A model generated the notes under the pieces. That model searched no databases. It was not told where the DNA came from and worked only from the letters and a program-made list of their open reading frames with translations. Positions 42,160 to 64,000 of a DNA stretch of 64,000 nucleotides are shown here, one piece after another. The DNA is taken from assembly GCA_965217865.1 (NCBI GenBank), contig CBDCJO010000002.1, positions 1,440,001 to 1,504,000 of the forward strand. Reading direction: 5' to 3'. The stretch's first letter is position 1. Each line of letters starts with the position of its first letter. Source of the stretch: Candidatus Latescibacterota bacterium (GTDB taxonomy: Bacteria; Latescibacterota; UBA2968; SICM01). Made by a program: the position numbers and the translations under genes.

Positions 42160-42167
42160 GGGTTACC

Positions 42168-43910: not shown

Positions 43911-43980
43911 CTATGATCGCTCCCGAAAATGGTTTTGTAAGGAACCGCGTGTCTTCTGGCTGCTGATGCAGCACACCAGC

Positions 43981-47760: not shown

Positions 47761-47781
47761 CTGAAGGGTCCCTTTGCTTCA
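47747..47781. repeat. 35-bp perfect direct repeat, copy 1
   Basis: GCCTTATCTTCCATCTGAAGGGTCCCTTTGCTTCA, identical to 50712-50746; includes the GH106 start codon. Confidence 0.9.
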
Positions 47782-47901
47782 TGGCATGCCTATTGTTAAT
47801 CGACTCGAAATACACATCCAAAATAGCGGAAGTCATCGAAAGTCCAGGCCCCCCCTCATTTCTCCCGTACCACCCCGGCGAGGAGGGAGGCGCGGAAGTC
47901 C

Positions 47902-49482
47902 TCAAGGGATATCGACTCGAACCTCCGCTTCCTGTACGATGACGTTCTCTCCGTCAACGGCATGCCCCTCGCGAAGCGCAAAGCCGATCTCGTTCCAGCC
48001 GTCACGGAGCATGCCATCCTGGAGCCTAAATTCCGCGTACAGGAATCCCTCCCCCTCGTGAGGAATCAGCGACAATCCCTTGGTGGAAACTTCCTTTCCG
48101 TTGACGTCTACCAGCAACGAGCCGATGTTGTCCAGATGGCGCGCTTTGAAACGCACCCACGCGTCCACTTCCTTCAGGTTCTCGTGCAGGCGACACGGAA
48201 CAGCCTTCCGCTCCGATGAGCCAGCCTCGAATTCGAGGCGGAGGAAACGCTGCACACAGTAAAGTGGCGCCTCTTTCAGATAGGTGTAGCGCCGTTCCTT
48301 CCCTTTTATGCCCTCGGGCAGGCAGATGTCGGGCAGAGGAAAGAGGTGGTGGTACGCGCATTCGTAGAAATTGAAGAACGATACGCCATCGGCCCCTTCT
48401 GCATAGAATCCGTGGACCAGAGCGCGAATGTTTTCACGTGTCACTTTCGTAATGCCTTCGCCCTCCATCTCGTATTCTTCCGGTATGCATACATCCGTCG
48501 CGAACGATGTGGCGCCTGTGATCCCGGGAAGCACGGCGCAGGACGTGCCGGAAGCCAGCTTCACCCAAGGCTCGATGGTCATCCTAAAGTCTGAGAGGAA
48601 ATTCTCTGTGGGGCTCACGTAGTCGAGCAATCCGTCTCTAATCCACTTCTCGACCTCGAGACCTATCACCCGGCAGAAATCCGGGTCCCACGGCACCATG
48701 GCACCTAAGATCGGCTTGGATTTCCCTCGCTTGCTCACGGTCTCATCTACGATCTTGCGGCATTCGGCGACGAACGATGTAAGGTGATGTGCGTTCTTCG
48801 AAGGAAAACTCACACAAAACAATGTGCGCAGGAAATTGAGCGTCAGGCCCTGGAGATCGTAGCGTTGCATGAATTCGCGCACAATTGCCAAGCGGTGTTC
48901 GCGTACCTGCGGCACGGCGTAGTCAAGCAGGTGGGGGCGGACCTCCTTAATAAAAGCAGGGACCAAGGTATTGGGACCACCAACGCAGGGGTGGGATTCA
49001 AAGGATACCTCACCACCAGCCTTCTCCTCCATGCTGCCTATTCTCCATTCCGGGTGGTCAAGCCAGAACTGGCTTGCCATCCCCGGGAAGCCAGCCTCAG
49101 CCACGTGGTGGGCGTCATTCACACGCATCTTCGCCAGTACGGTGCAGCCGTCTTTGCGGAATTGATTGACCGCGACCCCGAAAGGATCCACACCCGCTGC
49201 GGTTAATACCTTATACGCCTGGACGACGAGATTCACCGGTAGCCCAGTTCCGAAGGCTAATGCGGCCGAACCTTCGGTTGATCCCCAAACTTCCCCCACA
49301 TGTGCCGGGTAGTAGTAGCATACTTCCGGGATGGCTGCACACAGACTGATCATGTCTGCTCTGCTCTTCAGCAACCGTTGGGCGGCCTCTGCCAGTTCCG
49401 CCCGCCCGTCCTCTCCGACGGGCACGCCCAAAAAGCCGGAATCGTCGTGGATTACGATCTGTTTCCTGCTACGAGCATCCAT
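47902..49482 (-). CDS. GHL10-like TIM-barrel protein with C-terminal beta domain
   Basis: IHDD, DPFG, RVNDAHH, HPEWR, LDYA.P.VR, YDLQG..LNFLR, EGADGV.FFN. Confidence 0.75.
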   Translation of the reverse strand: MDARSRKQIVIHDDSGFLGVPVGEDGRAELAEAAQRLLKSRADMISLCAAIPEVCYYYPAHVGEVWGSTEGSAALAFGTGLPVNLVVQAYKVLTAAGVDPFGVAVNQFRKDGCTVLAKMRVNDAHHVAEAGFPGMASQFWLDHPEWRIGSMEEKAGGEVSFESHPCVGGPNTLVPAFIKEVRPHLLDYAVPQVREHRLAIVREFMQRYDLQGLTLNFLRTLFCVSFPSKNAHHLTSFVAECRKIVDETVSKRGKSKPILGAMVPWDPDFCRVIGLEVEKWIRDGLLDYVSPTENFLSDFRMTIEPWVKLASGTSCAVLPGITGATSFATDVCIPEEYEMEGEGITKVTRENIRALVHGFYAEGADGVSFFNFYECAYHHLFPLPDICLPEGIKGKERRYTYLKEAPLYCVQRFLRLEFEAGSSERKAVPCRLHENLKEVDAWVRFKARHLDNIGSLLVDVNGKEVSTKGLSLIPHEGEGFLYAEFRLQDGMLRDGWNEIGFALREGHAVDGENVIVQEAEVRVDIP

Positions 49483-49641
49483 GTTATCGTCCTTTGTTCA
49501 GTGCGGAAGTTGACGACGATCCGCACCGTCCGAGTCCGCAGCGTAGACCTCGTGCGTCCGTTCAGATCATTGTGTTCGCCGAAGTCGCGGACTGACGGAC
49601 ATGCCGCCTTAACAATACCATAGGCTGTGGAACGGAAAAGC

Positions 49642-50688
49642 TTATTCTGCGCATGGCTCACGTTTCACGCGGAGCTTCGCGCCCAGAAGTGCGGCGCGAA
49701 AGTCCTCCAGGGGCAGCTTGTCGTCCGCCATGGCCACGGTTGTGTAATGCGTTGTGTGGGCGCCGCAGCCGACCTGCATCGTCATCTTGCCGTAGAAGTA
49801 ACGGTGCGGGTAACAGATCAGGCCGCGCGATTGCCAGATCGGATTGCCGAAGATGTTGCATTCCATGACCGATTCCGGCGGAAACTCGACCTCCATCACA
49901 TGCGGCGGGTCCGTGATGCCGCGCATCCCCTCCCAGTATTGGGCCACGTATCGGCCGTAGGTCGGTCCGCTGTTTGCCGTTCTTAGGATGAACAGCCGAA
50001 TGTTTTCGGGCATGGCAAGATTCTCGTCCACGACTGTGGCGTTCATCAACATGGGGCTCCAGTCCGGATTGATCCAATCAAAACGGCGCTCGATCGGTCG
50101 AGCCAGCCCGAACGCACGACCCATGTGTATGGGAAATGTGGCCACGCAGCCCATCCAGTTTGCCCCGAACGCGATGAATTCCGCTGTGGCCGGATCGAAC
50201 GTGTACCCTTGCTCATTGAGTTGTTCGGTCAGGTCGATGGTCCACGCCTTTGAGCGTCCCCACGCACTGAATTCATTGTCCGGCACGTCGCAGCCGCGAT
50301 TCTGGATGGCCAGGCGCCGGTCTTCGAGCCCTTTCTCGAATTCGGGGCCCATTACGCGACAATTCTGCGCAAGATCGTTCTCCAGGCGGCAGACCACGCA
50401 GCGTGGCCCGAATTGCTCGCGGGCCAGTTCAACCAACTCTGGATTGGACTCCAGAACGAAGATGCCTTCGTGCGCTTGAGCTTTGCGGATCAGGCGGTAA
50501 TAATTTTCGCGTAACTGAAGGGCGCGGCGGTGGCACACTTCAGCCCGGTCGGGCCAGTAATCCCACACGTGACCGAATCGCCTTCCGCGCTCCGCGTCGT
50601 CTAGCCGGAAGATGTCCAGCCATCCCAGTGCGTGACAGCACAAGTAGATGCGGCGAAGCTTCTTAAGCGATTGATCAATTTTGAGCAT
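49642..50688 (-). CDS. Hypothetical protein
   Basis: 348-aa ORF with RBS GGAGG, co-oriented in the cluster; no family recognised. Confidence 0.7.
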   Translation of the reverse strand: MLKIDQSLKKLRRIYLCCHALGWLDIFRLDDAERGRRFGHVWDYWPDRAEVCHRRALQLRENYYRLIRKAQAHEGIFVLESNPELVELAREQFGPRCVVCRLENDLAQNCRVMGPEFEKGLEDRRLAIQNRGCDVPDNEFSAWGRSKAWTIDLTEQLNEQGYTFDPATAEFIAFGANWMGCVATFPIHMGRAFGLARPIERRFDWINPDWSPMLMNATVVDENLAMPENIRLFILRTANSGPTYGRYVAQYWEGMRGITDPPHVMEVEFPPESVMECNIFGNPIWQSRGLICYPHRYFYGKMTMQVGCGAHTTHYTTVAMADDKLPLEDFRAALLGAKLRVKREPCAE

Positions 50689-50711
50689 CCTCCATCGCCT
50701 CCTGTTGCGTT

Positions 50712-50746
50712 GCCTTATCTTCCATCTGAAGGGTCCCTTTGCTTCA
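50712..50746. repeat. 35-bp perfect direct repeat, copy 2
   Basis: Identical to 47747-47781; lies 4 bp after the fucosidase stop. Confidence 0.9.
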
Positions 50747-50750
50747 ATCG

Positions 50751-51713
50751 TTAAAAAGCCCGCTCTTTCAGCCGACGTCCGACCTCGGCAAGCACGTTTG
50801 CGTCCTCATCCTGAATCAATCCGCGGTCGGTTGGGGGGACGTTCAGCAGCAGATTGCCTCCGCGACCCCAGGCGATCTTGAGCCAGTCGATAATCGTGTC
50901 CGGAGGATGGGGGGTGTCCTCGGGCGTATAGAACCAGCGACGGTGTATGCTATCGCACGTCTCGATCGGTAAATAGCGGAAGTCGTCTCCGCGCACCATC
51001 CTTCGGATCGGTCGCGTGTCGGGGATGTAGAGCTGGTCACCCACCATTTTGTGCACACGCTCGATGCAGTTCAGGTCGACGGGGGAGAGGGCCAGCTCGC
51101 CTCCGTTCATCTTTCCCGGATTGCAAAGCACAAGGCAATCCGGCTGCAGGGACTTGATGTGGTCGTAGAGCTCACGCCAGTGCCACCGGGTCGCATCGTG
51201 CCATCCCCACCATCCCTTCTCCCAGCCAGCGTCGAACCATATTTCGAGTATGGGGCCGTAATCGGTCAGGAGCTCGGTCAACTGGCGCTTCATAAATTCC
51301 GCGTACGCCGCGTCATCCTCGTAGCTCGGCTCGTGCGTGTCCCACAGGGAATAGTACAACCCGATCTTGATCCCCCTGCTCTCGAAGGCCTCGCAGATCT
51401 CCTTCAAAATATCTCGACGCATCGGGGTCGTCATGATGTTGTAATCGGTCAGGCTGGTGTCCCAGATGCAGAACCCTTCGTGGTGCCTGGTCGTAATCAC
51501 GGCGTATTTCACTCCGCCAGCGTCGGCGACCTCGGCCCACTGATGCGGATCGAAGTCAACCGGGTCGAACTTGGCGGGATCTTCCTCCCCGGTTCCTGCT
51601 TCGATGTGGTAGAAGGTATTCAGGTTGAAGCAGACAAACAACCCGAATCGGAGGTCCATCCAGGCCTTCTGGGCCTGCGTGGGTCCTATGCGTTCAGGCT
51701 GATCGCCATGCAT
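50751..51713 (-). CDS. GH29 alpha-L-fucosidase
   Basis: FGLF, FDP.QW, TTRHHEGFC.W, GLYYS.WD, QLTELLTDYG, WFD nucleophile, NLLLNVPP. Confidence 0.92.
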   Translation of the reverse strand: MHGDQPERIGPTQAQKAWMDLRFGLFVCFNLNTFYHIEAGTGEEDPAKFDPVDFDPHQWAEVADAGGVKYAVITTRHHEGFCIWDTSLTDYNIMTTPMRRDILKEICEAFESRGIKIGLYYSLWDTHEPSYEDDAAYAEFMKRQLTELLTDYGPILEIWFDAGWEKGWWGWHDATRWHWRELYDHIKSLQPDCLVLCNPGKMNGGELALSPVDLNCIERVHKMVGDQLYIPDTRPIRRMVRGDDFRYLPIETCDSIHRRWFYTPEDTPHPPDTIIDWLKIAWGRGGNLLLNVPPTDRGLIQDEDANVLAEVGRRLKERAF

Positions 51714-51772
51714 GATTCGTGTCCTCCTCCTATTTGAGCAAGCCTGGGTTCAAATGCCATTCTGGCGTGTGG

Positions 51773-53005
51773 TTATCCGGTGCGACTTTGCCCAATGGAG
51801 ATGCGTTCATCTTCTGTTGTTCCCCGTTCCACTTGTCGCGTTACTTTCTCAAGATTGTTCAAAAACTCCGGGATGACCTCTTCGTGGTGGGGCATAACAA
51901 CGAGGCGCAAGCATTCTGGGTTCCGCATCCGTCCATCCCCTTCCACCCCAACCTGTCCATTCCCTCTGCAATGGAAGATACGCCGATTCTGTTTGTTGTG
52001 GATATGACCGGAACGATGTTGATCTCAGGTTCAACGGCGATATCGAGGCCCCGAACCTTTCGGACACCCGTAATCAGTGCCTGCGTATTCTTCATCACCT
52101 TGTCCACCACCTTCAAATAGCCTTCTTCGCCGAGAAGGTTGAGGGCCGTCCAGGCACTTGCGATTCCTGAACCCGAATGGCTTCCCTCGATAGCCGGACT
52201 GCGATAATCTCCGCCGACCCAATTCGTCATATTGAAACCCTGAAGGCGGAACAGCTCCTCAGTTCTATAAAGTTGAACGCCGGTGGGATAAGCAGCCAGC
52301 CCCAGCTTATGGGGATCAATCGATATCGAACTGACGGCTTTCACCTGAAAGTCCCAATCATCCGGAAGGGGGTGAGTTTTTTGGCGAAGGGGATGATGAA
52401 GCCGCCAAGGCAGGCATCCACGTGGAGAAACAGGCCGTGCTTTTCAGCGATCTGACCCAGGTCAACGACGGGATCGATTTGTCCGTGGGTGGGTGTTCCA
52501 GCAGTGCAAAATATGGCGATGGTATTCTGATTGATCGCCGCTTCAATCGCCTCCGGATCCGCCTTGAAGTTCTTGTCAAGAGGTGTCCGGATAATATCCA
52601 CCCCCATAAGGGTTCCGCCCTTTTCGACCGATGGATGCGCTGTTTCGGGTGCGACAATGTTGGGGGATTCAATCTCAGGATGTTTCTTGCGTGCATTCTC
52701 CCGAGCTACAAGGACAGCCTGAATGTTACTCATGGTCCCACCGGGGGTAACATTCCCGGCCGCGTCCGGATGACCGAGGAGGTCTCCGACCATGGAGACG
52801 ACTTCCTTTTCCAGTTTCGTACAGCTTGGGAATGCAGTGTGGAAGAAATAGTTCTTTCCATGAACTGCACGGAGGCTTTGATCACCACCTCGTCGAGGCG
52901 GTGAGTGCTTGCCCACACTCGCTCAAGAGGAGCGTCATCTGCTTCAAACGTCTTCAGTGCGGCTGTAATCTCAGGCTCTCTCTTGCCTTTCGCAGGGAGC
53001 TTCAT
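51773..53005 (-). pseudogene. Group II PLP decarboxylase / sphingosine-1-phosphate-lyase-like gene with three frameshifts
   Basis: GGTMSN, AH.SV.K, G.IDP, LHVDACLGG and SIDPHK motifs spread over several frames (shifts near 52855, 52375 and 51920). Confidence 0.85.
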
Positions 53006-53122
53006 CTCCTCAACCTCCTTACAAGCTGCGATCAGGATTCTTCCTGTTCGGCGTTTCGCATTGGAACTTGAGCAAGGTGGCAAGAGCCGGTATCAATATC
53101 GAAAAGGAATGTTCAGGCAGGC

Positions 53123-54532
53123 TCACCGCTGACCGATGGCGTCCGTGAAGCTCATGCCACGATAGTCCGGCAGCTCCCCTCCGGCATCCTGCATCGCGCG
53201 CTCATAGGCCATCTTCACCTCGTCATGACGTTGTTCGACGAGATTGTTCCGGCACCTCGGGTCGCTTCGCGGGTCGAACACTTCACCGGCAACCCCGTCG
53301 AGGTCCATGAGGACGAAGTTTTCGTGGTCGCGATACCAGAGGGAATCGCGATAGCGACTTGTGAGGTACTCCCTGGGGTGCCACCCGCCGCCGTGGATAA
53401 GGGGGGTGAGATCGCTTCCGTCGATCGAAAGGTCGGACCCCATGGCCTGTGCGACGCCGCTCTGATGGTAGAGCGTGGCCACGATGTCGGTGTTATAGAC
53501 GAGTTCGTCGAAGCGCTTTCCGGATCCAGCGCCTCCAGGGAATCGGATGAGAAGCGGCACGTGTACCACCCCCGGATACATCGCGTGGTGGGGTTTGCCG
53601 AGGATTCGGCGGGGGTTGTCCGCGAAGTTGGTGCCGTGGTCGGAAGTGAAGACGATCACGGAGTTGTCATAGAGGCCGACGCGCTTGATCGTGTCGATCA
53701 GCCGGCCGAACCATGTGTCGACCAGGGACACGAGTCCGGCGTAATGGGCCTGGACGTGCCGGAGTTCCTCCTCGTTCAACTGCCCGCCAATCTCGGCGTA
53801 ATGGATATGCAGCGCGGTTCGGCCGGCGTAGTTCGGGTCGGCATACAGGCGGAGGTAGGACGGTGGGGCCTCCCATGGCTCGTGGGGCGCGAACGAATCG
53901 GCCAGAAGATAGATCGGCTGATATCCGGTGTTCTGCTCGACGAACTCCGCCGCCCATCGGAATACCTGTGCGGTGCGGGTGTCCTCCTCGTTCTTCTCGT
54001 GGGCCGTGTTGGCCAGATGCCGGGCGATCAGTCCCCCGGGCAGCTTTTTTGCCTCCTCATCCGGATCTCCGTAGTTCGCGATCTTCTCCCGGGGGACGAT
54101 AGCGGGAGATTTCCAGCGGTCCTGCTGCATCCCTCGCACGTAGTGCCACTGCCAGAAGCCGCGGGTGAAGTTCATGCCGGGCGCGAAATAGGGGAGGGTG
54201 TCCGTGACGAAGCCGGTGTAGTAACCGCGGTCGGCCAGGTTCTCGGCCAGAGTGTCCTCAGCGTTGTCCATGGGCTGCCATCCGGGCAAATTGACGATGT
54301 CCCATTTGAGGGGCTTCCAGGTACGGATCGGAAAGATTCGTCTCCCGGTGTGGAAGGACCGCCTGTATGGGATTGTCGGGAGAACCTCAGGGTAGCAGGA
54401 ATCAAAAAGTGCGGCATCGCGGGCGAAGGCTTCGATGTGAGGGGTCCGGATTCGCCCGTTGCCATAGCAGCCCAGGTAGTCGACCCTGAGGGTGTCCGCG
54501 ATCACCACAATAAGGTTCGGTTTTTTCACCAT
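53123..54532 (-). CDS. Sulfatase-like hydrolase with Thr at the usual Cys/Ser position
   Basis: PNLIVVIADTLR.D.LG.YG, TIPYR.S.HTG, PHEPW, FTSDHG, VPLLIR.P. Confidence 0.88.
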   Translation of the reverse strand: MVKKPNLIVVIADTLRVDYLGCYGNGRIRTPHIEAFARDAALFDSCYPEVLPTIPYRRSFHTGRRIFPIRTWKPLKWDIVNLPGWQPMDNAEDTLAENLADRGYYTGFVTDTLPYFAPGMNFTRGFWQWHYVRGMQQDRWKSPAIVPREKIANYGDPDEEAKKLPGGLIARHLANTAHEKNEEDTRTAQVFRWAAEFVEQNTGYQPIYLLADSFAPHEPWEAPPSYLRLYADPNYAGRTALHIHYAEIGGQLNEEELRHVQAHYAGLVSLVDTWFGRLIDTIKRVGLYDNSVIVFTSDHGTNFADNPRRILGKPHHAMYPGVVHVPLLIRFPGGAGSGKRFDELVYNTDIVATLYHQSGVAQAMGSDLSIDGSDLTPLIHGGGWHPREYLTSRYRDSLWYRDHENFVLMDLDGVAGEVFDPRSDPRCRNNLVEQRHDEVKMAYERAMQDAGGELPDYRGMSFTDAIGQR

Positions 54533-54560
54533 TGTGAATTCCCCGGGGATTTTCCCGCCT

Positions 54561-56147
54561 TCATCTCTTGTGCTCCAGCTGAACGGCCAGCCAGTATGGG
54601 TAGGTTTCATCACGATGCGTGATCTCGACGTCCACTTTCCGCACCTCCGCGGGCTCAGGCTTGGGAAACTCGTGAACTCCCGGGGTGGCCCGCAGCGTGA
54701 ACGCCAATCGGTTCAGGCCGCACTTGATCAATTTCGGATCGACGATGGCCTGGAGGTGGCAGGCCTCGTTATCCTCGGGGTGATCCGTGACCGTGAGGGG
54801 GAGGGTGATTCCCTGTTCCCGTTCCACAGGGACCTCCCCGCCGTTGACTTTCAGGGTCACTTCGGCCACGGATGTCACACGGGTGACGTTGATCAGGAAC
54901 CTGACCCCCACAGGAGCGCCGGCGGCCAGGCCCCCCGGGATGTCGTCGGGGATGTCGATCTCCATTTCCCCTTCTCCGCCTTCGGCGCGGGGTCCCAGGA
55001 CCAGGGGCAGGGCCATCTGGAAGACGTAGGTCTTGTTGGCGTCTCTCATCCGCTCCGGGTCGCCGAGCTCACGGAACACCTCCCACTGCAGCTCGTGGTT
55101 GCGGACCAGGTAGTCGTAGAAGAAGATTCCGTCCACGCCCTGTTCATACAGCCTGTGCGCAATCGCGCGGTGCTGAAGGCGGTTGGTCCGACTTGCCGGG
55201 AAACCGTCGACCAGACCGCCACGGCCGAACTTGAAGCGCGTGGGTTTTCCGGGCCCGGCCGCAAGGCTGCAATTCGTGCCCTCGATCGCCTTCCGCCAGC
55301 CGGACATGTCCATCTCGTAGAGTGAGGCCGCGCGGCAGTGTGCGATGAGGATGTCTATGAGACCCTCTCGCGCCCAGGTGCGAACGTCCAGACCGATCTG
55401 GAAAAGGCCTTCGATATCATCGTGGTTTCTGTCGTCGAGCTCCTTCCAGATCGTGTCCTCGGTGTAAAACTGTGCGGAGAGCCCGAGCCGCTTGCCCTTC
55501 TTGGCGCCCACCTCGTCCAGCATGGCGCGGATATTGCGCAGGTGCTGGTTCATGGTCTCGCGGCCCTTCTCCGTTTCATCGGGATTGAAATACGGGGGCA
55601 TCCGCGTATAGTCCAGGTCGATGCCGTCCACGTCCCAGGTCTCGGCCACCTCTCTCAGCAGAGCCAGGTGCTGTTCGGCGATTAGCGGCTTGTTCCAGTC
55701 GTAGGTGGCGGAAAGCTGGTGTGCGGGGACCGACTTCAGCCGCAGCTCCGGGTGTTCTTTATAGAACTTGGGTTGCGAGTAATCCAGCCCCGCGTAGGTG
55801 TGGTGCGCATCGTTCATGCGGCAACTGCCCCAGGCCTGGATCCCGCACCTGTGACATTCGTCCACGAAATAGACCATGGGATCTTCGCCCGCCTCGATCC
55901 ACGCCAGGATGCCGGGACGGGGTTCAAGACCGGGAACGCTGGTTTTCTGGGCGACCCCCGGCATTCCGATGCAACGCTGAAAAATGCCGATGTGAGATCC
56001 TTCGATGCTCTGGACCAGGGAGCGAAGCTGCCGCTCCGCGGTTTCGGGACCCGCTCCGGTTTCGTCCCCGTCGTAGGTCATGATCAGTCGTTGACGCGGG
56101 TGGAGATGAACTACCTGGTCTTGATCCTGCTTCTTCTTGTTTGGCAT
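54561..56147 (-). CDS. GHL10-like TIM-barrel protein with C-terminal beta domain
   Basis: TYDG, DPM..FV..CH..G, RMNDAHH, HPEL, WDVDGIDLDYTR, GLDVRTW, GVDGIFFYD; related to 47902-49482. Confidence 0.78.
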   Translation of the reverse strand: MPNKKKQDQDQVVHLHPRQRLIMTYDGDETGAGPETAERQLRSLVQSIEGSHIGIFQRCIGMPGVAQKTSVPGLEPRPGILAWIEAGEDPMVYFVDECHRCGIQAWGSCRMNDAHHTYAGLDYSQPKFYKEHPELRLKSVPAHQLSATYDWNKPLIAEQHLALLREVAETWDVDGIDLDYTRMPPYFNPDETEKGRETMNQHLRNIRAMLDEVGAKKGKRLGLSAQFYTEDTIWKELDDRNHDDIEGLFQIGLDVRTWAREGLIDILIAHCRAASLYEMDMSGWRKAIEGTNCSLAAGPGKPTRFKFGRGGLVDGFPASRTNRLQHRAIAHRLYEQGVDGIFFYDYLVRNHELQWEVFRELGDPERMRDANKTYVFQMALPLVLGPRAEGGEGEMEIDIPDDIPGGLAAGAPVGVRFLINVTRVTSVAEVTLKVNGGEVPVEREQGITLPLTVTDHPEDNEACHLQAIVDPKLIKCGLNRLAFTLRATPGVHEFPKPEPAEVRKVDVEITHRDETYPYWLAVQLEHKR

Positions 56148-56930
56148 GAGTTATCCTTTCTGTAGGTTTTTTCTGGAATGCTCAACCGGCCGTGGAACTC
56201 TGAACCTGCGCAGTAGCTTGCAGCAGTCCGAGCGACCTCAGGGAGCGAGAAGAGATCCGTTGTTAAGGGTCGTATTGTTTTTATCCTAAAGGAGGGGAGA
56301 AAGGAGCGGACCATCACCCTCTATCTAGGTTTGTGTTTTTTCCCCCCAAAACAGAAATGCTCATTGCAGAGAATCCCCGCCAGTCAACCTATCCAGCGGG
56401 GATCTATATTGAGAAAAGTGTTTGATCATGTGAAGTGGGAGGCGGTTGACAGAGCGCTTTGGCAGGTTCACTGGCTTTGAGGGGCCGATGGAGGCTCACG
56501 CGATCACTTGAGATCGCCCGAAAAAACCGAAGTAAGGTTGAATCTAGATAATGGTTGTATGTAGGTTGAGAAGGGATACATATTTTCATATATCCCTGAC
56601 CCACAGGAGGACTAAAGATGCAGCAAACCCACCTCGAAAAGTGACCCGATCAAGAAGCGCAGGATCTTACCCCCGGAATAAGACTATGAGGTTTAACACC
56701 AGCCCGGGAGATGTTTCGGTTGCACAAGTGCTGCGGAATTGAGAGTCCACTCTGGCCCAAATATATTCGCTGGACCAATAATTTCCTTCATATTTGCCGC
56801 CTCAAAGATATATTGTCCACCACTGGTGAATTTCGGGATCGCTCTTTAAGATAACTCACTATATTGAGGTGTATCAAGAGAAAAAACCCTTAATTCACCT
56901 TGTCTTCCACAGGACAGAGAGGATTCTGAC

Positions 56931-57965
56931 ATGAACTCTAACCCCATCAGCATCAACACCTACACCGCCTTGCGCGATGAAGTCGCAAAGGTTTTAAGTG
57001 CCGGAAAAGCCCGGGCCCGTCAGGCCGTGGAACGGGAAAAGGCCAGGACCTACTGGGAGGTTGGGGGCTTGATCCAGGCGCACTTGCTTGCAAATAAGGA
57101 CCGGGCCGACTACGGAAAACAGTTGGTTCCCCGGCTGGCAAATTTCGTGGGGACCAGCGAGAGGGTTTTGTATGAATCCCTTCAATTCTACCGCTCGTTT
57201 CCAATTCTGCGCGCGCGCGCAGAATTGACCTGGTCACACTACCGTACACTGATGAAAATCCCGTCTGAAAAAAAACGGTATCTCTTTTAAAAAGAAGCAG
57301 ATAGACGGGGTTGGACCAGCCGGGAACTGGCCGCCCAGATACAGGCCGGAACCCTCCCCACGAAGAGCGTTCAGCAACCCGAAAAGGGTCCGGTGGCCCG
57401 ACTCCAGGCCAAGCGGGGACGGCATTATACCTACCGGCTGATCGAAGCGCCGGGCGGAAGGGGATTGCGGCTGGATCTGGGGTTCGGAATCCTTCTAAAA
57501 AGGCCGTTGAATCGGCTTGAAAAGCCCCGGGAAGGCACGTTCGTGGAGGTGGTTCGGCGTCCGGGTGACGGCGAACCGTTTTTCAGGCTTCGGACAATTC
57601 GCGACAGGCGCGCCTTTTATTCCTACCGGGCCTACGTGGAGCGCGTGATCGACGGGGACACCCTATGGCTGGACGTGGACTGCGGATTCCAGGTGTGGAC
57701 CCGGCAGAAAGTGCGGCTGAGAGGGATCGACACGCCCGAACTTCGGACCTGGGAGGGTCAGGAAGCCAGAGCATTCGTATCGTCTGCGCTTTCAGGGAAT
57801 GGGTCTGTAGGCGTCACGACGACCAAACCGGACAAGTACGATCGGTATCTGGCGGACGTTTTTTACCTGCCGGGAAAAGGGGAACACGAAGAGGGGCTTC
57901 GAAACGGACGGTTTTTGAACGGGGAGTTGTTGAGGAAGGGATACGCGAAAAGAATTGAAGGTTGA
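56931..57965 (+). pseudogene. DUF1016 N-terminal (YhcG-like) domain fused to a thermonuclease (SNase) domain, with in-frame TAA at 57288-57290
   Basis: TYWEVG..I, RADYG, FYRSFP, LTWSHYR.L; the frame stays open after TAA (KEADRRGWTSREL..QI) into RVIDGDT, RLRGIDTPE, DKYDRYLADV. Confidence 0.82.
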
Positions 57966-58106
57966 CACCATCAGGCCACATCAATATTCAATTCTCCGAT
58001 ATTCAAATATTCAGTGATTCTTCTTGGCGACATAAGTAATTGCACATGTTGTCCAGTTAGATTCGCTTCAACGAGCCTGCTCTTTTCTTGAAGCAAACCT
58101 CCGGCT

Positions 58107-58268
58107 CCTGCCTTTCCCGTTTGACGTTTCACGTTTGCCTCTCACGTTTTTCCTAACCTCTGACCCCTCGCTTTTTTTGATCTTCTTCTGACTTCTGTAT
58201 TCTATATTCTGTATTCTCCGATCCTGCCCCCTGCCTTTCCCGTTTGCCGTTTACCGTCTCACGTTTTC
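58107..58268. repeat. Degenerate heptamer tandem repeats
   Basis: (CGTTTGA/CGTTTCA/CGTTTGC)n in two blocks, each preceded by CCTGCCTTTCC, plus (TTCTGAC/TTCTGTA/TTCTATA)n. Confidence 0.7.
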
Positions 58269-58693
58269 CCTGACATTTTGGCCTCCATCCGCTGGCACTG
58301 CCGGACGCTCATGGTCACATCCCACTCCTGCCGGATTAACGCCGCCAGCGTCTTGCCTTTCCAGACATTTCCGTTCAACCCGAACTCCGCGGGAGTCTTC
58401 CTCAAAGCAGCATGGATCTTCGCAGTTTGCTTTTCACTCAACCGCCGTGGGCGCCCGGATCGCTTTCCCCTCACCAGCCCCGCCAGCCGCCCCTGTTCGA
58501 ACCTTTCCACCCAGTTGGCCACGGTTCGATGGGCAACACCGAGTATTCCGGCAACCTCCCTGCAGCTGTTCCCCCGGGCGACCAGGAGGATGCCGTGCAG
58601 CCGACGGTCATACCGGGACTCCGGAGACCGCCGGATCTCATCCTGTAGCGCAAGAATGACACGCTCAGAATTAGCTATCGTAAGCTTTTTCAC
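58259..58693 (-). pseudogene. IS630-family transposase N-terminal HTH fragment
   Basis: EVAGILGV..RTV.NWV.RF..G.LAGL...RSGRP..L, W.GK.L...I...W.V.MS; no DDE domain follows. Confidence 0.8.
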
Positions 58694-58847
58694 GTCAAAA
58701 CAAAGATAACAAACCTTGACCTTATATGCAATTACTTATGTCGTTTAGCAGAATAGGAATTTGATGAACACGGTTCGGTTGCCTACTTATGAAAAGCCCT
58801 CAGCATTCACATTCGGCTAATGCAAAAGTACCGTTTAGGTATCAGAG

Positions 58848-59467
58848 TTACCTTATTTTATTGCTGGATACAGATTTCGCGAGAATCATCACTCGCACAA
58901 GGGTCCGGTCTTCGGTCACCCCGGGAGTCTGGAAACCGCCGAGGACCTGGTCCACCTGGGATCACGCAACTTCTTGACCTCTCGAAAGTCAAAACGCTGG
59001 TAAATCGTATTGCACATCTGCCCCATCCACTGAAGGAGCTCATGCGAGCCCGAGGGAAAAGCCCATGATATAAGACCGCCAATGACTTCTTGCGATCGGT
59101 ACCATTCAACCAGGGCTTTCAGCAAGGCGGTACCGATCCCCTGGCCGAAAAGCTTTGCACGGTTTCGCCCGAGACAATATCCAACATGGTAGCAGCCGAG
59201 TGTCAAGAAACGGCCGTGAAGGTCGAGCGGCTCCGCGATCTGGAAGTCGGCGAACGGACGGTGACCGATCCATCCCTTCGGGTCTGAGAAACCAGGGTCG
59301 TACTCCTGAAGGTACAGCTGTCCGACACAGCGATCTCCATCGAAAGCCAACATCGATGCAATGCTCTGCTTCTCAATGAACTGTCGGACGTGCTCTGCCG
59401 ATTTCCAATGGCAGCTCTCGACGACTCCGAAATCGCTCGGTAGCATTTGGCGACATCGAATCTCCAT
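58848..59467 (-). CDS. GNAT-like acetyltransferase (cassette-like gene; possible 3' frameshift near 58953)
   Basis: LAFDGDRCVGQL, GQGIGTALL, Y.RFDF.E; ATG 20 bp after GTTATGT. The ORF-track stop is at 58916; an alternative frame ends at 58848. Confidence 0.65.
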
Positions 59468-59486
59468 GCTTACCCTCACTGTGGGC

Positions 59487-59629
59487 ACATAACTTATAAT
59501 TAAACAGCCTAAAAGAAAACCGCAAACACTGCGATCTTGGCAGTATATTTGGTGAGGCAGTCTACTGTTAGATTACTATTTTCAGTTGGTTAAATCAAGA
59601 ATCCATTTCGGGATCAGACTGCGAAGCGT
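59487..59629 (-). promoter_or_regulatory. Promoter + attI-like module, copy 1
   Basis: TTGATT (59598-59593)-17 bp-TAATCT; ends TTTAAT-TATAA-GTTATGT; diverged direct repeat of 61234-61376. Confidence 0.65.
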
Positions 59630-59643
59630 GGGGTAAACGGTCT

Positions 59644-59700
59644 CTAAGTGGCCAGGGCATGAGCACCTACGACTAGAAACTCAACCCCATGAGCGTTGAA
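59644..59700 (-). pseudogene. N-terminal remnant of a nucleotidyltransferase gene
   Basis: A second frame reads FNAHGVEFLVVGAHALA*, typical of the MNT-like partner of the small upstream gene. Confidence 0.55.
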
Positions 59701-59893
59701 TTCGGACAACAGATCTCTGAAGTCGCGGTTCACCATCGTTTGCTTCCCACATCAGACAAAGCAGAGTGAGTTCCCACACGGCATTGATCCGCTCCTCAGG
59801 TGTGGAATCCTCCCATTCCCAATCCTTGCGGACTGCCGCTCCCGGTCGAATCACACGGGTTCTAACGCTACGATCCTTTTCGGCCGATTTCAT
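59681..59893 (-). CDS. Small hypothetical protein (type usually paired with a nucleotidyltransferase)
   Basis: 70 aa; W...TPEERI.AVWEL and RLQRSVVRI motifs. Confidence 0.6.
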   Translation of the reverse strand: MKSAEKDRSVRTRVIRPGAAVRKDWEWEDSTPEERINAVWELTLLCLMWEANDGEPRLQRSVVRIQRSWG

Positions 59894-59959
59894 TGATCCT
59901 GGTATATCACCTCGTCAGGCTGAGCTCTGGAGAATACGACGCCTACAGTATGCCTTCAG

Positions 59960-60056
59960 AATAAACTCCGAATGTTCGTTGCGGACGCCTGGCGCTGGCC
60001 GTGCTGGACCAAGGGCCGTGACAGACGATCCGTTCTGCCCGGGGTGTTTGTTAGAT
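59960..60056 (-). repeat. Degenerate attC of the PIN cassette
   Basis: R'' ATCTAAC contains the stop codon of 60051-60227 and complements the cassette start GTTAGATT; internal GTCACGGCCCTTG..GCACGGCC.GCGCCAG resembles long attC cores; right arm eroded. Confidence 0.55.
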
Positions 60057-60227
60057 TTGCTCGGGCGAAGCAGGGGTAACTCTACCTGCCCGCTTCCTCA
60101 GTCTGTCGCTGTGAACCTGCTGCCGCCGAAGGTAGTATGCCACGAGCTTCTGTGGATCGTGTTCCTGCTCTTGCGATATGATGTGCCGGGCTGAGCGTAC
60201 CCGTTTGATGACAATATCATCCTTCAT
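60051..60227 (-). CDS. Small putative antitoxin downstream of the PIN gene
   Basis: D.VI.RVR.ARH.IS.E..HDP.KLV.YY...Q; overlaps the PIN stop. Confidence 0.65.
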   Translation of the reverse strand: MKDDIVIKRVRSARHIISQEQEHDPQKLVAYYLRRQQVHSDRLRKRAGRVTPASPEQI

Positions 60228-60663
60228 CTTCAGTCTCCCCAAGCAATTCGAGTGGTGTTACCAGCGTTGGAACATAAACTCGCTGAATATGACTGTATTT
60301 ATTGCCATTGGCCAGATGGTTGCAGTTCCAGGTAAGAAGGAAGTCACACTTGTGATAGGATGCCAAAGCAAGGTGTAAGGCATCCCCTACAGGATCTCGC
60401 TGCATCACACGATGTTGAATGTAGGCCTCGACGATCTCAGCAATCTCCTGTTCGATCGGCAGCAAGGGGAGGGCCTCGACCAGCGAAATAGCGTCCATTT
60501 TGTTCGGATATTCCCCTCGGCTTAGTTCGTCCAGAACGGCCTCGCTCGTGACTACATCGTAAACGGATCGATGGCTGTCCCACCAGTCGCGCGTCCACTG
60601 ACGGCGAGCGACCATATCGGGCTCCTTACGTGTTTCGATGTACACAAGAGGTATTGTTGCCAT
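60217..60663 (-). CDS. PIN-domain (VapC-like) toxin, apparently with two in-frame deletions
   Basis: VYIET, TSEAVLDEL, DALHLALA, LLTWNC.HLAN, VTPLEL motifs. Confidence 0.8.
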   Translation of the reverse strand: MATIPLVYIETRKEPDMVARRQWTRDWWDSHRSVYDVVTSEAVLDELSRGEYPNKMDAISLVEALPLLPIEQEIAEIVEAYIQHRVMQRDPVGDALHLALASYHKCDFLLTWNCNHLANGNKYSHIQRVYVPTLVTPLELLGETEDEG

Positions 60664-60714
60664 GACTTCCTGATCCCTCAATCCTCGTGCGTGTTGGGCG
60701 CCCTTCTGATGTCA

Positions 60715-60843
60715 ATCTAACGTATCGACATTAAGTTGCCGGCCTTACGACGGTGCCGGCATCGATAGTATTATATGATTACCATTTCGTCTCGATCACG
60801 TAGCGCGGGACCGTGGCCGGACAACTTCAATGTCCGGTTAGGC
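60715..60843 (-). repeat. Integron attC recombination site (129 bp)
   Basis: R'' GCCTAAC (containing the VOC stop TAA); arm GACATT-g-AAGTTG-t-CCGGCC pairs with GGCCGGCAACTTAATGTC leaving two extrahelical bases; R' GTTAGAT. Confidence 0.85.
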
Positions 60844-61206
60844 GTCCCGACTTTGGACAAAACGGAATTCGTGGCCATCTGGCCCCGACGCATCGAAGAA
60901 ACGTTCGGACGCTGAGGAATGAATCGTGCCAACGAGGACGGCCTTTGACTTCAGATAGTCATGCATCGTGTCCAGATCGTCGGATTGAAAGATGAGCTTT
61001 GGCTGTCCACCTGTTCCGGTTCCGACTGGATGGTGCAGGGCGATCTGAACATTACCCGCGTCGAACACGATCCAGCCTTCGTCGCGTTGGTCATCCAGCA
61101 CCGGAAACTCGAGCACTTGCTCGTAAAATGCCGCGAGCTCCTTCAGATCAGCCGGATGCAACATGACGGTCTGTGTGGATGTGATGGGCAGTTTCGTCTT
61201 AATCAT
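60838..61206 (-). CDS. VOC/glyoxalase family protein on an integron cassette (60721-61239)
   Basis: L..FYEQVL.F, IALH, F.SDDLD, GPDG; RBS GGAGG; cassette begins G/TTAGGCGTC and ends GACGCCTAAC. Confidence 0.87.
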   Translation of the reverse strand: MIKTKLPITSTQTVMLHPADLKELAAFYEQVLEFPVLDDQRDEGWIVFDAGNVQIALHHPVGTGTGGQPKLIFQSDDLDTMHDYLKSKAVLVGTIHSSASERFFDASGPDGHEFRFVQSRDA

Positions 61207-61233
61207 GGCTTTGCCTCCAGATACCAGGCTGAC

Positions 61234-61376
61234 GCCTAACTCAAAGTTAGACAGCCTAAAAAGAAACCGCAAACACTGCAATCTCGGGGGGATTATTTGT
61301 CGAGGCAGTTTACTGTTAATTTACTTTTTTCAGTTGGTTAAATCAAGAATCCATTCGGGATTAGGCTGCGAAGCGT
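61234..61376 (-). promoter_or_regulatory. Promoter + attI-like module, copy 2
   Basis: TTGATT (61346-61341)-17 bp-TAAATT; ends GTCTAAC-TTTGA-GTTAGGC (simple site); no long attC-type stem upstream. Confidence 0.7.
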
Positions 61377-61479
61377 AAAAGGCAATACTCCCCCTCAGCG
61401 CATATGAGACTGATGTCAGGATTGCCTAAAGGATCGCACGGAGTGTGCCAGGGTGATCCCTCCGCGCCGATCGCACGGC

Positions 61480-63231
61480 TCACCCGTCGGTGGACCGGCA
61501 GTCCTCGTGTTGGACCATGATGCCTTCCAGCGAGATGAGCGGAACCACGCGGAACAGTCCCTCCGCGAATCGTTTCAACTCAGGCAGGTCTTCCTTATGA
61601 CCCAGCACTCTGTGCATGGCCCACTCGGCCAGACGCATCGGCCGGGCATTGCAGTCCCAGAAGCCCAGACCGTCAACGCCGGCGTCGTAGCAGGCCAACG
61701 CACGCACGCGCAAGGAATCCGGGGACTGGCGACGGGGATACAGGTCTGCGTAGACTTTTGCCTCCGTGCCCTTGGCCAGGTCCACGTAGGGCCTGATCAG
61801 CGGCGGGCGATCGCTGGCGTCGGGGGCCCCGACTCCCTCCATGTGTACGACCAGGTGGTCTAGGAGGCCCTCCTGCACCCAAGTCTCGATGTCCATTCCC
61901 AGAGATCGCGGCGTCGTGAAAGGCCCCAGGTCCGGACAACCCTTGGCCTTGTAGCTGTCATCGCCGGGAACCACGTAACACGTACCCAGCCGCCGTCCCC
62001 GCTTTTCGCCGACTTCATCGAGCATCCGCCGCGTCTCACGAAGCGTCTCGGTCAGGTAGTGCGCCCGGTGGGCCAGAACGCGTTCGTCGAACCGGTCCAG
62101 GGCCTTCATGTCCAGGCCGTATTTGTCCTTGAAGGACCGGACTACGGGCTCCTCGTAGAACACGTAGGGGAACGAACGAACGAAGATGATGCACACACCG
62201 TCGGCCTCGTAGTCGTCCACCCACTCTCGGAAAAGCTCTACGTATTTCGCTCTGACCTCGGGGAAGGCGTGACTCAAGTGCAGGGTGTCGTAACCCTCCA
62301 CGGTCCTGCAAAGCCATTCGGGATGGCGGAAATGAAAGTCGCCGGGTCCGCCATAGCCGAGATGGGAGGGTGGCGGTCGAACCCCGGTCATACGAACCTG
62401 CGGATAGATTTCCATCCCGATCCCGTGGGCGGCCTGTACGGCGGAGCGCAGCGGGTCAAACCCGTGGCGGCGCCGGCGGTCCCGGCCCTCCAGCGCGTGC
62501 CGTGTGTTGACGAGCCCGGGTGTCCATTCCTCCTCGGAGACGACCCGCGACGGGTAGAGGGCCGCCAGGGCGCGCGCGCAGCCCCACAAGATGATCTTAA
62601 AGTCGCTCTCCGCCAGACTCAGGAATTCGTCGACCATCTCCTGCTGCGTGGCGTAGCCCCACATGAAGTGCTGGCCGCCGTCGTAGTTGGCGATGAGCCG
62701 TCGGGTGTCGTCTCGCGGCCGCAGGGTGTGATAGAGGTTTCGCTCGGGATCGGACATGGGCACGAGGCGGATGTAGGAGATGTTGGCGATCGATTCGCCC
62801 ATCATTGCCACCGAAGCCCGGTGGAAGATGATGTCCTGGCCGGTCAGGTCCGCGGACTTCCAGTAGGTCTCCGCCAGATCCGTATCAGACGCGACCATCT
62901 CGGGGGGAACCAGGTCTTTGCCCGGCCTGAATGTCGGCCGCGCCATCCGTGTATATCCCGCGTCCCCGCTGAGCTTCAACAGCAGACAGTGCTGGTCGGT
63001 GAGCCAGGCATGAGTTCCCACATAGATGTGAAACCAACCCGCGACGTCGGGTTTCAAGCGAATCGGCGGCACGTTGGAGCCTGGACCGGAGAAGAGCATG
63101 GAGCCGTCGCCCGATTCGACCGTGTAGTCCGCCGCTGTCCATTTGCCCGGCTCGAACTTGCGTGAGATCGCGGCTGCAGGCTCACAGGCCGTCATGTCCA
63201 ACAGGTATATGGATTCATTCTCTCTGTCCAC
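61480..63231 (-). CDS. GHL10-like protein, paralog 3
   Basis: 583 aa, closest to 42168-43910; GTG start with RBS AGGAGG. Confidence 0.75.
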   Translation of the reverse strand: MDRENESIYLLDMTACEPAAAISRKFEPGKWTAADYTVESGDGSMLFSGPGSNVPPIRLKPDVAGWFHIYVGTHAWLTDQHCLLLKLSGDAGYTRMARPTFRPGKDLVPPEMVASDTDLAETYWKSADLTGQDIIFHRASVAMMGESIANISYIRLVPMSDPERNLYHTLRPRDDTRRLIANYDGGQHFMWGYATQQEMVDEFLSLAESDFKIILWGCARALAALYPSRVVSEEEWTPGLVNTRHALEGRDRRRRHGFDPLRSAVQAAHGIGMEIYPQVRMTGVRPPPSHLGYGGPGDFHFRHPEWLCRTVEGYDTLHLSHAFPEVRAKYVELFREWVDDYEADGVCIIFVRSFPYVFYEEPVVRSFKDKYGLDMKALDRFDERVLAHRAHYLTETLRETRRMLDEVGEKRGRRLGTCYVVPGDDSYKAKGCPDLGPFTTPRSLGMDIETWVQEGLLDHLVVHMEGVGAPDASDRPPLIRPYVDLAKGTEAKVYADLYPRRQSPDSLRVRALACYDAGVDGLGFWDCNARPMRLAEWAMHRVLGHKEDLPELKRFAEGLFRVVPLISLEGIMVQHEDCRSTDG

Positions 63232-63298
63232 GAATGTTCACCTCCTGAAAAGTGGTTTGTAGGAACAATGCCTCGATCGCGATCTTCTTTGGGATCAG

Positions 63299-64000
63299 TC
63301 AATTCCTGAATTGAAACGCATAGAGTTTGCAGTCTCGCATCACAAATCGGATTCTGACAGGCCTTCCAGCCAGCCCGCTCACGTCACGGCTCCCGCCCCA
63401 CGAGACGGGCATGCGCAAGGCGTTGCCGTTCAGCCGGTCGGCCTGGGGTGCACCGAATCCTTCGACGGGTTTCCCGTTTGTGTCGAGCAGTTCGACCAGG
63501 ATCGACCCGCCGACGGAGGTGTCGAGGTTTAGTTCCAGGAATCCGCCGTCGAATGTGAAGGGGGGGGTCACCAGCTCACCACCGTCGGAGGACGCGTCGG
63601 CCGAGACAAACCCGTCGAGGCGCATAACGGCGCGGCTGATGGCGGCGAGACGCCGGCCTCCAGGGGCGGACGGATCGATGATGCTGTTGTGATCCTGATT
63701 CATCCCCACGTAGTAGATCCAGATTTCGTCGCCCATCCGGACGGGGTTCGGCATCGCCCAGATCATCTTCGAGTCAAACCGGCCGGCCGGACCGAGACGC
63801 ATGAACGGCGCCCGATCGCCAACGTGTTGAAATGTCCTGTTGTCACGACTCACCAACAGGCGCACGTCGAACGTGGCGGGGCCGATCTCCCCGCTGTCCG
63901 TTATTTTGACATCGGGATTTTCATTACCCCGGGATTGGCTCGGTTCCGGCTTGGCGTTGATCCGTTCGAAGTGCCAGTAGGACTGGGCAAGCATGATCAC
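63299..64000 (-). CDS. Partial (3' part) beta-propeller glycoside-hydrolase-like protein
   Basis: SRD...F, G.FD, DEIWIYY.G, MRLDGFVS, GELVT.P, LYAFQF; continues past the window edge. Confidence 0.7.
   Translation of the reverse strand: MIMLAQSYWHFERINAKPEPSQSRGNENPDVKITDSGEIGPATFDVRLLVSRDNRTFQHVGDRAPFMRLGPAGRFDSKMIWAMPNPVRMGDEIWIYYVGMNQDHNSIIDPSAPGGRRLAAISRAVMRLDGFVSADASSDGGELVTPPFTFDGGFLELNLDTSVGGSILVELLDTNGKPVEGFGAPQADRLNGNALRMPVSWGGSRDVSGLAGRPVRIRFVMRDCKLYAFQFRN

Follow-up and report, generated by a model that had tools for sequence, protein, structure and literature searches.

Probable eroded inverse-integron attI pads in a Latescibacterota chromosome and their likely continued exchange of gene cassettes

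What receives and expresses gene cassettes at a chromosomal locus that has no integrase gene? This question is raised by a 64,000-nucleotide stretch of DNA from Candidatus Latescibacterota bacterium (contig CBDCJO010000002.1 of assembly GCA_965217865.1, positions 1,440,001 to 1,504,000), referred to here as the window. A first-pass annotation made from the letters alone had described two diverged direct repeats within it as stand-alone, multiplied attI-like modules served by an integrase in trans. By BLAST, the repeats (59490-59629 and 61237-61376) are 85.1% identical over 141 nt (E 9e-38), in agreement with the earlier estimate of about 85%. On the minus strand their similarity ends, as had been noted, at a core site, which reads G|TTATGTG in the first copy (w1, G at 59493) and G|TTAGGCG in the second (w2, G at 61240). 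Pad w1 occupies 59487-59629 on the minus strand, with the crossover G|TT at 59493 and a 5' end that cuts into the preceding gene. Pad w2 (61234-61376, minus strand) is a 5'-truncated inverse-integron spacer ending in an attI-like simple site, composed of L (GTCTAAC, 61252-61246), the spacer TTTGA and R (GTTAGGC, 61240-61234), with the crossover G|TT at 61240. This simple site had been recognized previously, and at the sequence level its L-5 nt-R arrangement with a G|TT crossover at the head of an array is that of an attI. The first ATGs lie 26 and 34 nt past the core G, i.e. 19-27 nt past the 7-nt core, which bears out the claim that a gene starts shortly after each copy.

Neither copy resembles an attC. 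Folding z-scores are +0.6 for w1 and -2.2 for w2, compared with -3.3 for the true attC of the window (60715-60843), and the end-to-end attC stem (the R''-L''...L'-R' bottom-strand hairpin) is absent from the folds of both copies, as the first-pass annotation had held. It was also right that no tyrosine recombinase gene lies in the window, since none of the 18 matches to PF00589 in the genome falls there. A search of positions 44000-64000 against Rfam returned only two chance matches, both below the gathering score. The repeat pair is not a misassembly, because the stretch 57665-61357 is reproduced with 0 differences in sequencing runs X1 and X3, either of which may itself be the source sample of the assembly. 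The promoter proposed for both copies (TTGATT-17-TAA(A/T)(T/C)T) fared less evenly: it reaches a consensus score of 8/12 in copy 2 and stays below 8/12 in copy 1, and the promoter scan picked other hexamer pairs, two of them where 2.0 are expected by chance. Hexamer pairs scoring 8-10/12 occur in all six pad copies scanned, at chance frequency. A cassette promoter (Pc) within the pads is thus plausible as a prediction.

In minus-strand order, the locus comprises a GHL10-like gene, w2, a glyoxalase cassette, a PIN cassette, a 70-aa ORF with a stump, w1, a GNAT-like gene and an IS fragment. The GHL10-like host gene (61480-63231, minus strand) lies outside the integron and flanks w2 upstream at a distance of 104 nt, where a GH-like gene about 100 bp away had been reported. 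Cassette 1 (60721-61239, minus strand, 519 bp) carries a glyoxalase/VOC gene (61206-60838) and an attC; it begins with TTAGGC, which is exactly complementary to the cassette's R'' (GCCTAAC). The attC is intact and 129 nt long (60715-60843, minus strand), with R' GTTAGAT and an R'' that overlaps the stop codon; it folds with z-scores of -3.3 and -3.1, and one of 200 shuffles folds equally well. The presence of real attC sites between w1 and w2 had been overlooked in the earlier annotation. Cassette 2 (59981-60720, minus strand) consists of a PIN-domain gene (60663-60217) and a small downstream ORF ending at 60051, a pair that may be toxin-antitoxin-like. Its R'', ATCTAAC, likewise complements its own start, G|TTAGAT. 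The right arm of its attC has been lost; over the first 76 nt, this site shares 76% identity with an intact attC at C2:4980751. The array of the window thus contains one intact attC and one half. The attC-bounded cassettes share one orientation, and R' and R'' are complementary in cassettes 1 and 2. A cassette start that complements its own R'' is the mark left when a circular cassette integrates at G|TT by the established integron mechanism.

The remainder of the array is damaged. Just before w1 lies the remnant of a two-gene unit (59630-59893, minus strand), made up of a 70-aa ORF (59893-59681), which matches nothing in Pfam or NCBIfam, and a stump of 30 codons (59736-59644) that resembles the N-terminus of a nucleotidyltransferase. 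The motif GTTAGAA at 59866-59860 was considered as a cassette core and rejected, as it sits within the 70-aa ORF. The first gene behind w1 is a GNAT-like ORF (58916-59467, minus strand) whose Pfam match is weak, falling slightly short of the cut-off (E 5.5e-4); within 3 kb there is no R'' to match it, so its attC has been lost. The array ends in an IS fragment (58017-58754, minus strand), which we take to be IS630-like, with an HTH_29/HTH_32 ORF (58693-58259) between 40-nt inverted repeats.

The pads of the window are members of a dispersed family. Seven copies were found by BLAST and by a profile search alike, at 840.7k, 841.3k, 1499.5k, 1501.3k, 2613.6k, 4241.8k and 5457.6k on contig C2, and the six that were compared are 78-93% identical. 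The 5' end and the downstream DNA differ in every copy. Five pads have a GTT core, and in three of them a matching R'' is found at the stop of the first gene; of 1496 random GTTA sites, 18 show such a match. The attC has been lost after w1, b and c. Copy d lacks the attI and copy e the GTT. Copy d (C2:5457585-5457782) now precedes an aldo-keto-reductase-like gene, and copy e (C2:4241753-4241803), which keeps 50 nt, precedes a desaturase-like gene (both labels assigned by eye); the two are possible cases of promoter domestication. The GC skew was too irregular for the copies to be oriented relative to replication.

The origin of the repeat is revealed by copies a and d, which run upstream into the last ~20 codons of intI on the cassette strand. 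In copy d this tail reads YNHVLNRGGRGVRSPQDSL-stop, and copy a carries the same tail with a 1-nt deletion; a third variant appears as a loose end in contigs of runs X9 and X10. An intact IntI gene of a class-level relative (L017; 469 bits against a TIGR02249 cut-off of 265) matches both tails at the DNA level (E 2.8e-5 and 6.4e-4) and copy d by tblastn (14/19, E 4e-5). The distance from the intI stop to the attI-like site is 175 nt in copy a, and an attI-like site was seen by eye 164-211 nt past the intI stop at four of 12 IntI loci in 168 genomes of the phylum. The attI-like site of one intact integron (L095) aligns with the pads. The intI tails upstream of copies a and d show that the repeat is the spacer between intI stop and attI of an inverse (Treponema-type) integron. 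Copies a and d thus have the inverse layout themselves; w1 and w2 carry no intI tail, and their own link to intI would run through these two copies. The modules are therefore not stand-alone in the sense first proposed, as two of them retain an intI 3' tail directly upstream.

The idea that a resident IntI acts in trans is not supported either: no IntI in the whole assembly exceeds the TIGR02249 cut-off, and when nine intact IntIs were compared with the genome by tblastn, the only IntI-specific match was the 19-aa tail. At 96% completeness and 9% contamination, the assembly could lack an intI that the organism possesses. An intact ancestor of this exact spacer was found in none of 60 relatives; two metagenome scans gave no match, and genome contigs gave five unrelated ones. 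The genome-wide BLAST suggested in the first-pass annotation returned a mixed outcome, in that all seven copies have different downstream DNA, as anticipated, and intI stands beside a pad only in the form of ~20-codon tails. Remnants of intI directly upstream had also been named as a sign of just two decayed ordinary integrons. Such remnants are there at copies a and d, elsewhere in the genome, so this refuting condition applies in part; the description is nevertheless too small, since seven plus ten copies in two families, the inverse layout and the turnover after integrase loss in relatives amount to more than two such integrons.

In order to determine whether the pads are in use, we compared four sequencing runs with the window, including X8 (depth 2) and X9 (depth 10) from two other studies. 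Both X8 and X9 join 60721 to 61241, which places the PIN cassette directly behind w2, with exactly the 519-bp glyoxalase cassette missing at G|TT. The X8 contig continues past the 5' end of w2 into the flanking host gene, and the X8 population is therefore also without intI there. In X9, a w1-like pad precedes the glyoxalase cassette at a distance of 1311 nt. As GTTAG is common to both cores, slippage deletion could produce the X8/X9 joint too. A joint removing 59494-61240 is not listed among the four runs, and contigs drop rare variants. The sequences thus suggest that the pads are likely to be still swapping cassettes, by means of an enzyme from elsewhere. The proposal of multiplied attI-like landing sites stands, given seven copies, different DNA after each and evidence of cassette gain or loss at the integrase-less w2. 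Most of the evidence for cassette turnover after integrase loss comes from a second family and not from that of the window.

The second family lies behind a different recombinase. The best TIGR02249 match of the genome (118 bits) is a tyrosine recombinase at C2:1657172-1658351, which is frameshifted in this assembly near C2:1657430 and behind which come a spacer of ~150 nt and G|TTA. Nine further pads of this family, each consisting of the recombinase 3' end plus spacer, lie on C2 at 1789.4k, 1982.8k, 1990.1k, 2034.7k, 3496.4k, 3803.3k, 4235.1k, 4801.6k and 4999.6k. The copies are 78-98% identical, and there are four additional fragments without the site. Canonical attC cassettes follow these pads: a matching R'' lies within 46 nt of the stop of the first gene in three of the ten, and a foldable attC is present downstream in five. 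The first ~920 coding bases of the recombinase have no match in the genome outside one near-full copy, which fits arrival in an already truncated state as well as later erosion. An unbroken 368-aa protein, 99% identical to it and possibly not independent of the assembly, is present in the protein database. Compared with the IntI of L095, the second recombinase has a gap of ~36 residues where IntI has its ~35-residue insertion near patch III, and it is not an IntI, as the broken copy scores 118 bits and an intact relative 215 bits against the cut-off of 265. In the available text of PMC8138268, the IntI insertion is described as not fully conserved in an integron-like subgroup but as essential for integron function. 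Related intact recombinase genes with a downstream GTTA site are present in many genomes of the phylum.

Relatives show both erosion and turnover. In relatives of family f4 we analysed 40 regions, which gave 37 pads of the second kind. At least 44 matches extend as far as the G|TT core; they come from 15 of the 22 genomes, 13 of which have two or more; among the f4 matches listed, only two span most of the recombinase gene. A query from the 3' part matched five of five genomes, and a query from the 5' half two of five. At one orthologous f4 locus the truncation points vary by species (q916, 1061, 1144-1155), which indicates erosion in place. One deletion junction shared by four genomes is followed by three different first genes, and a second junction likewise by three among four; other orthologous f4 pad pairs keep an identical cassette. 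Conversely, the same cassette gene is found behind pads with different junctions in different genomes. None of the five tested genomes with shared-junction pads has an IntI over the cut-off. A comparable series for a true IntI is preserved in genome G098, which contains an intact integron, another copy from which 286 bp are missing internally, and a 50-bp piece that consists of the attI alone. In genome G097, six cassettes that are 97-100% identical reside in pads that are mostly 60-86% identical. Here (L180-L185), and at two loci of G098 (L186 and L187), the element is a tyrosine recombinase plus an IS91-family transposase (450 bits) and is itself an integron cassette, starting at G|TTGAAC and ending in a 55-75 nt attC-like site with R'' GTTCAAC. 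We had considered the six G097 recombinase copies as mobile integron platforms and rejected this, as they are IS91-like cassettes. A heuristic scan of 39 loci (six unparsable) for an integrase inside a cassette gave only a few weak upstream folds and did not support that arrangement. Outside these lineages, Psychromonas sp. PT13 carries a 231-bp unit twice (L025 at 2131.7k and L028 at 1565.2k), 90% identical and ending at GTTA before different sequence; neither 6-kb locus contains an IntI match, and the unit is possibly another duplicated attI pad.

Taken together, we consider it probable that the pads are eroded inverse-integron attI sites that were likely copied around the chromosome and that likely still exchange attC cassettes through a tyrosine recombinase supplied in trans. 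Under this explanation, whole integron platforms would have been duplicated or re-acquired first and eroded afterwards, with intI lost from the 5' side. The last 140-250 bp would have been retained because they hold the predicted cassette promoter and the attI. The enzyme acting in trans could be a transient incoming IntI or the second recombinase of the genome, which is frameshifted here and of which the unbroken 99% version exists. In a broader version, a Latescibacterota-like chromosome holds dozens of live, inherited attI-promoter pads of two integron lineages, and the enzyme acting on them in trans lacks the IntI insertion considered essential for attC recombination and can itself move as a cassette, as in G097. 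This is possible, and we put it forward tentatively, leaning against it. If it were true, such a distributed cassette system would constitute a class of integron that IntI-based searches cannot see, and many CALINs would be active.

The most serious competing explanation, which we judge unlikely, is that the pads spread as cassettes of the delta-attI type, whereby the segment that separates two pads, or an attC from a pad, leaves as a circle carrying promoter and attI and is reinserted elsewhere, the copies being truncated from birth. The corresponding attI-ORF-delta-attI layout, in which the downstream pad cuts a cassette gene, is present in both tandem pairs (w2-w1, 1747 bp; a-b, ~585 bp), and the order of an ORF followed by a partial attI in place of an attC is seen from a to b and in the unit before w1. 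In addition, in one relative a G|TT core is followed after 25 nt by a pad, pad remnants are strongly 3'-polarised, and IntI1 is able to excise and insert units of this type, one of them a 244-nt delta-attI2 (as described in the available text of PMC12901181). However, copies lying in tandem are not the ones most similar to each other (w1/w2 84.7% versus w1/b 91.5%; a/b 91.6% versus b/d 93.3%), which also led us to reject local tandem duplication as the source of the pairs. Several dispersed pads (w2, i6, i8 and i9) lie directly behind host genes and lack an upstream cassette body. We also rejected excision from secondary GWT sites within the recombinase gene, as none of nine truncated second-family 5' junctions begins at a GWT (by eye). 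Insertion by attI1 into genomic sites of E. coli is given only at background rate in the text available from bioRxiv 2022.09.11.507474.

A second alternative, to which we assign a still lower probability, is that the pads are dead relics of independent old integrons and that the strain differences arose by slippage deletion or homologous replacement with no integrase involved. The absence of an intact IntI from the assembly and the damage to most arrays, described above for w1, b, c, d and e, agree with it. Pads at the orthologous locus are 81-90% identical, a level similar to or lower than that of their coding flank (81-92%), which does not demonstrate strong selection, and in Xanthomonas the loss of intI usually froze the arrays (bioRxiv 2025.06.18.660453, as far as its available text goes). 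Against this stand the cassette-exact difference at w2 in two studies, with the same cassette behind another pad in X9; the new, near-identical cassettes in old, divergent pads of G097; and the one cassette gene behind pads with different junctions in different genomes. The remaining reading, the module as an IS/MITE end, an atypical attC or the cargo of IS91-like one-ended transposition, is hardly credible: upstream of copy a, part of the module does recur as an inverted repeat (17/19), and IS91-like elements sit at pads in G097 and G098, but the inverted repeat occurs only at copy a and overlaps the intI tail, which itself largely refutes an IS/MITE end, the 5' ends differ in all copies, there is no attC-type fold, the source genome has no IS91 transposase match, and the G097 elements are nearly identical whereas their pads are not, so that the pads are targets and not cargo.

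Judged from its sequence, the pad appears to function as the attI platform of an integron does. Having no intI, it does not make up a complete integron, and it is neither an attC nor an IS end. Inverse chromosomal integrons of the Treponema denticola type have been described (PMC3607928, PMC4889954), and an attI downstream of intI is also reported from archaea (PMC9668308). As in inverse integrons in these partially available accounts, intI is transcribed toward attI, the simple site lies 160-210 nt past the stop, and the attC cassettes share one orientation. Inverse integrons, however, have one attI each, beside intI, whereas here there are seven copies, none with more than ~20 intI codons. 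The arrays are like CALINs and SALINs in consisting of attC cassettes without a neighbouring integrase and unlike them in being headed by recognisable attI pads. In the text available to us, CALINs are defined by attC only, and attI is searched for only if it is of class 1-3 (Cury et al. 2016, PMC4889954). The same source finds intI pseudogenes near only 15 of 279 CALINs and none near 95%; intI tails of ~20 codons, or spacer-only remnants, would likely escape that pseudogene test. Integrase loss and action in trans are among the proposed origins of CALINs and SALINs (PMC4889954; Loot et al., bioRxiv 2022.09.11.507474).

The delta-attI cassettes of class 1 and 2 integrons (PMC12901181) also resemble the pads, being partial attI sites of variable 5' length within arrays, and there they can be used by the integrase. 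In the text at hand they are mostly 14-18 nt long (one of 244 nt) and belong to mobile resistance integrons that keep intI, whereas the pads are 50-250 nt long, chromosomal and dispersed, and also head arrays beside host genes. In Xanthomonas, as here, intI is deleted or truncated while the arrays are retained, and CALINs are found at several conserved loci; there, according to the available part of bioRxiv 2025.06.18.660453, intI is at a single ilvD locus and arrays are more stable after its inactivation, whereas here there are many pads with signs of later turnover. Within the full-text literature searched, which took in few subscription journals, we found no description of many dispersed attI pads with intI tails; besides the systems compared above, it yielded insertion at attG, and PMC9892861 contained nothing relevant. 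The favoured explanation provides a concrete origin for integrase-less cassette arrays, in which the integrase is eroded to 20 codons or none while its docking site survives and appears to keep exchanging cassettes. Two questions can now be tested directly with short synthetic sites: whether an enzyme in trans serves an orphan attI, and whether attC cassettes can be recombined by an enzyme that lacks the IntI insertion.

We also observed several features of the surrounding DNA. The window contains two paralogous GHL10-like genes (42167-43945 and 61479-63266), ~71% identical and 19.3 kb apart. A DUF1016_N plus SNase gene, split into two ORFs in the window (56931-57965), recurs beside pads and the second recombinase (C2:1659687-1660715; G097 loci L183 and L184). 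Low-complexity tracts of short repeated words (CTCTGACC, GCCACTGC, TCACGATC) occur in the window at 58080-58280 and at 44 other places in C2. They cluster near accessory DNA, and in three cases a fragment of the second recombinase runs straight into such sequence. Nine of 21 pad copies or fragments lie within 10 kb of a heptamer-like tract, versus 12.6% of random sites, a comparison that is circular since the motifs were chosen from the same loci. Finally, an unrelated multicopy element, identical around GGATAAATCAAG, is found at ~25 places in C2, with one copy in the window near 26160, and is probably an IS in recent expansion.
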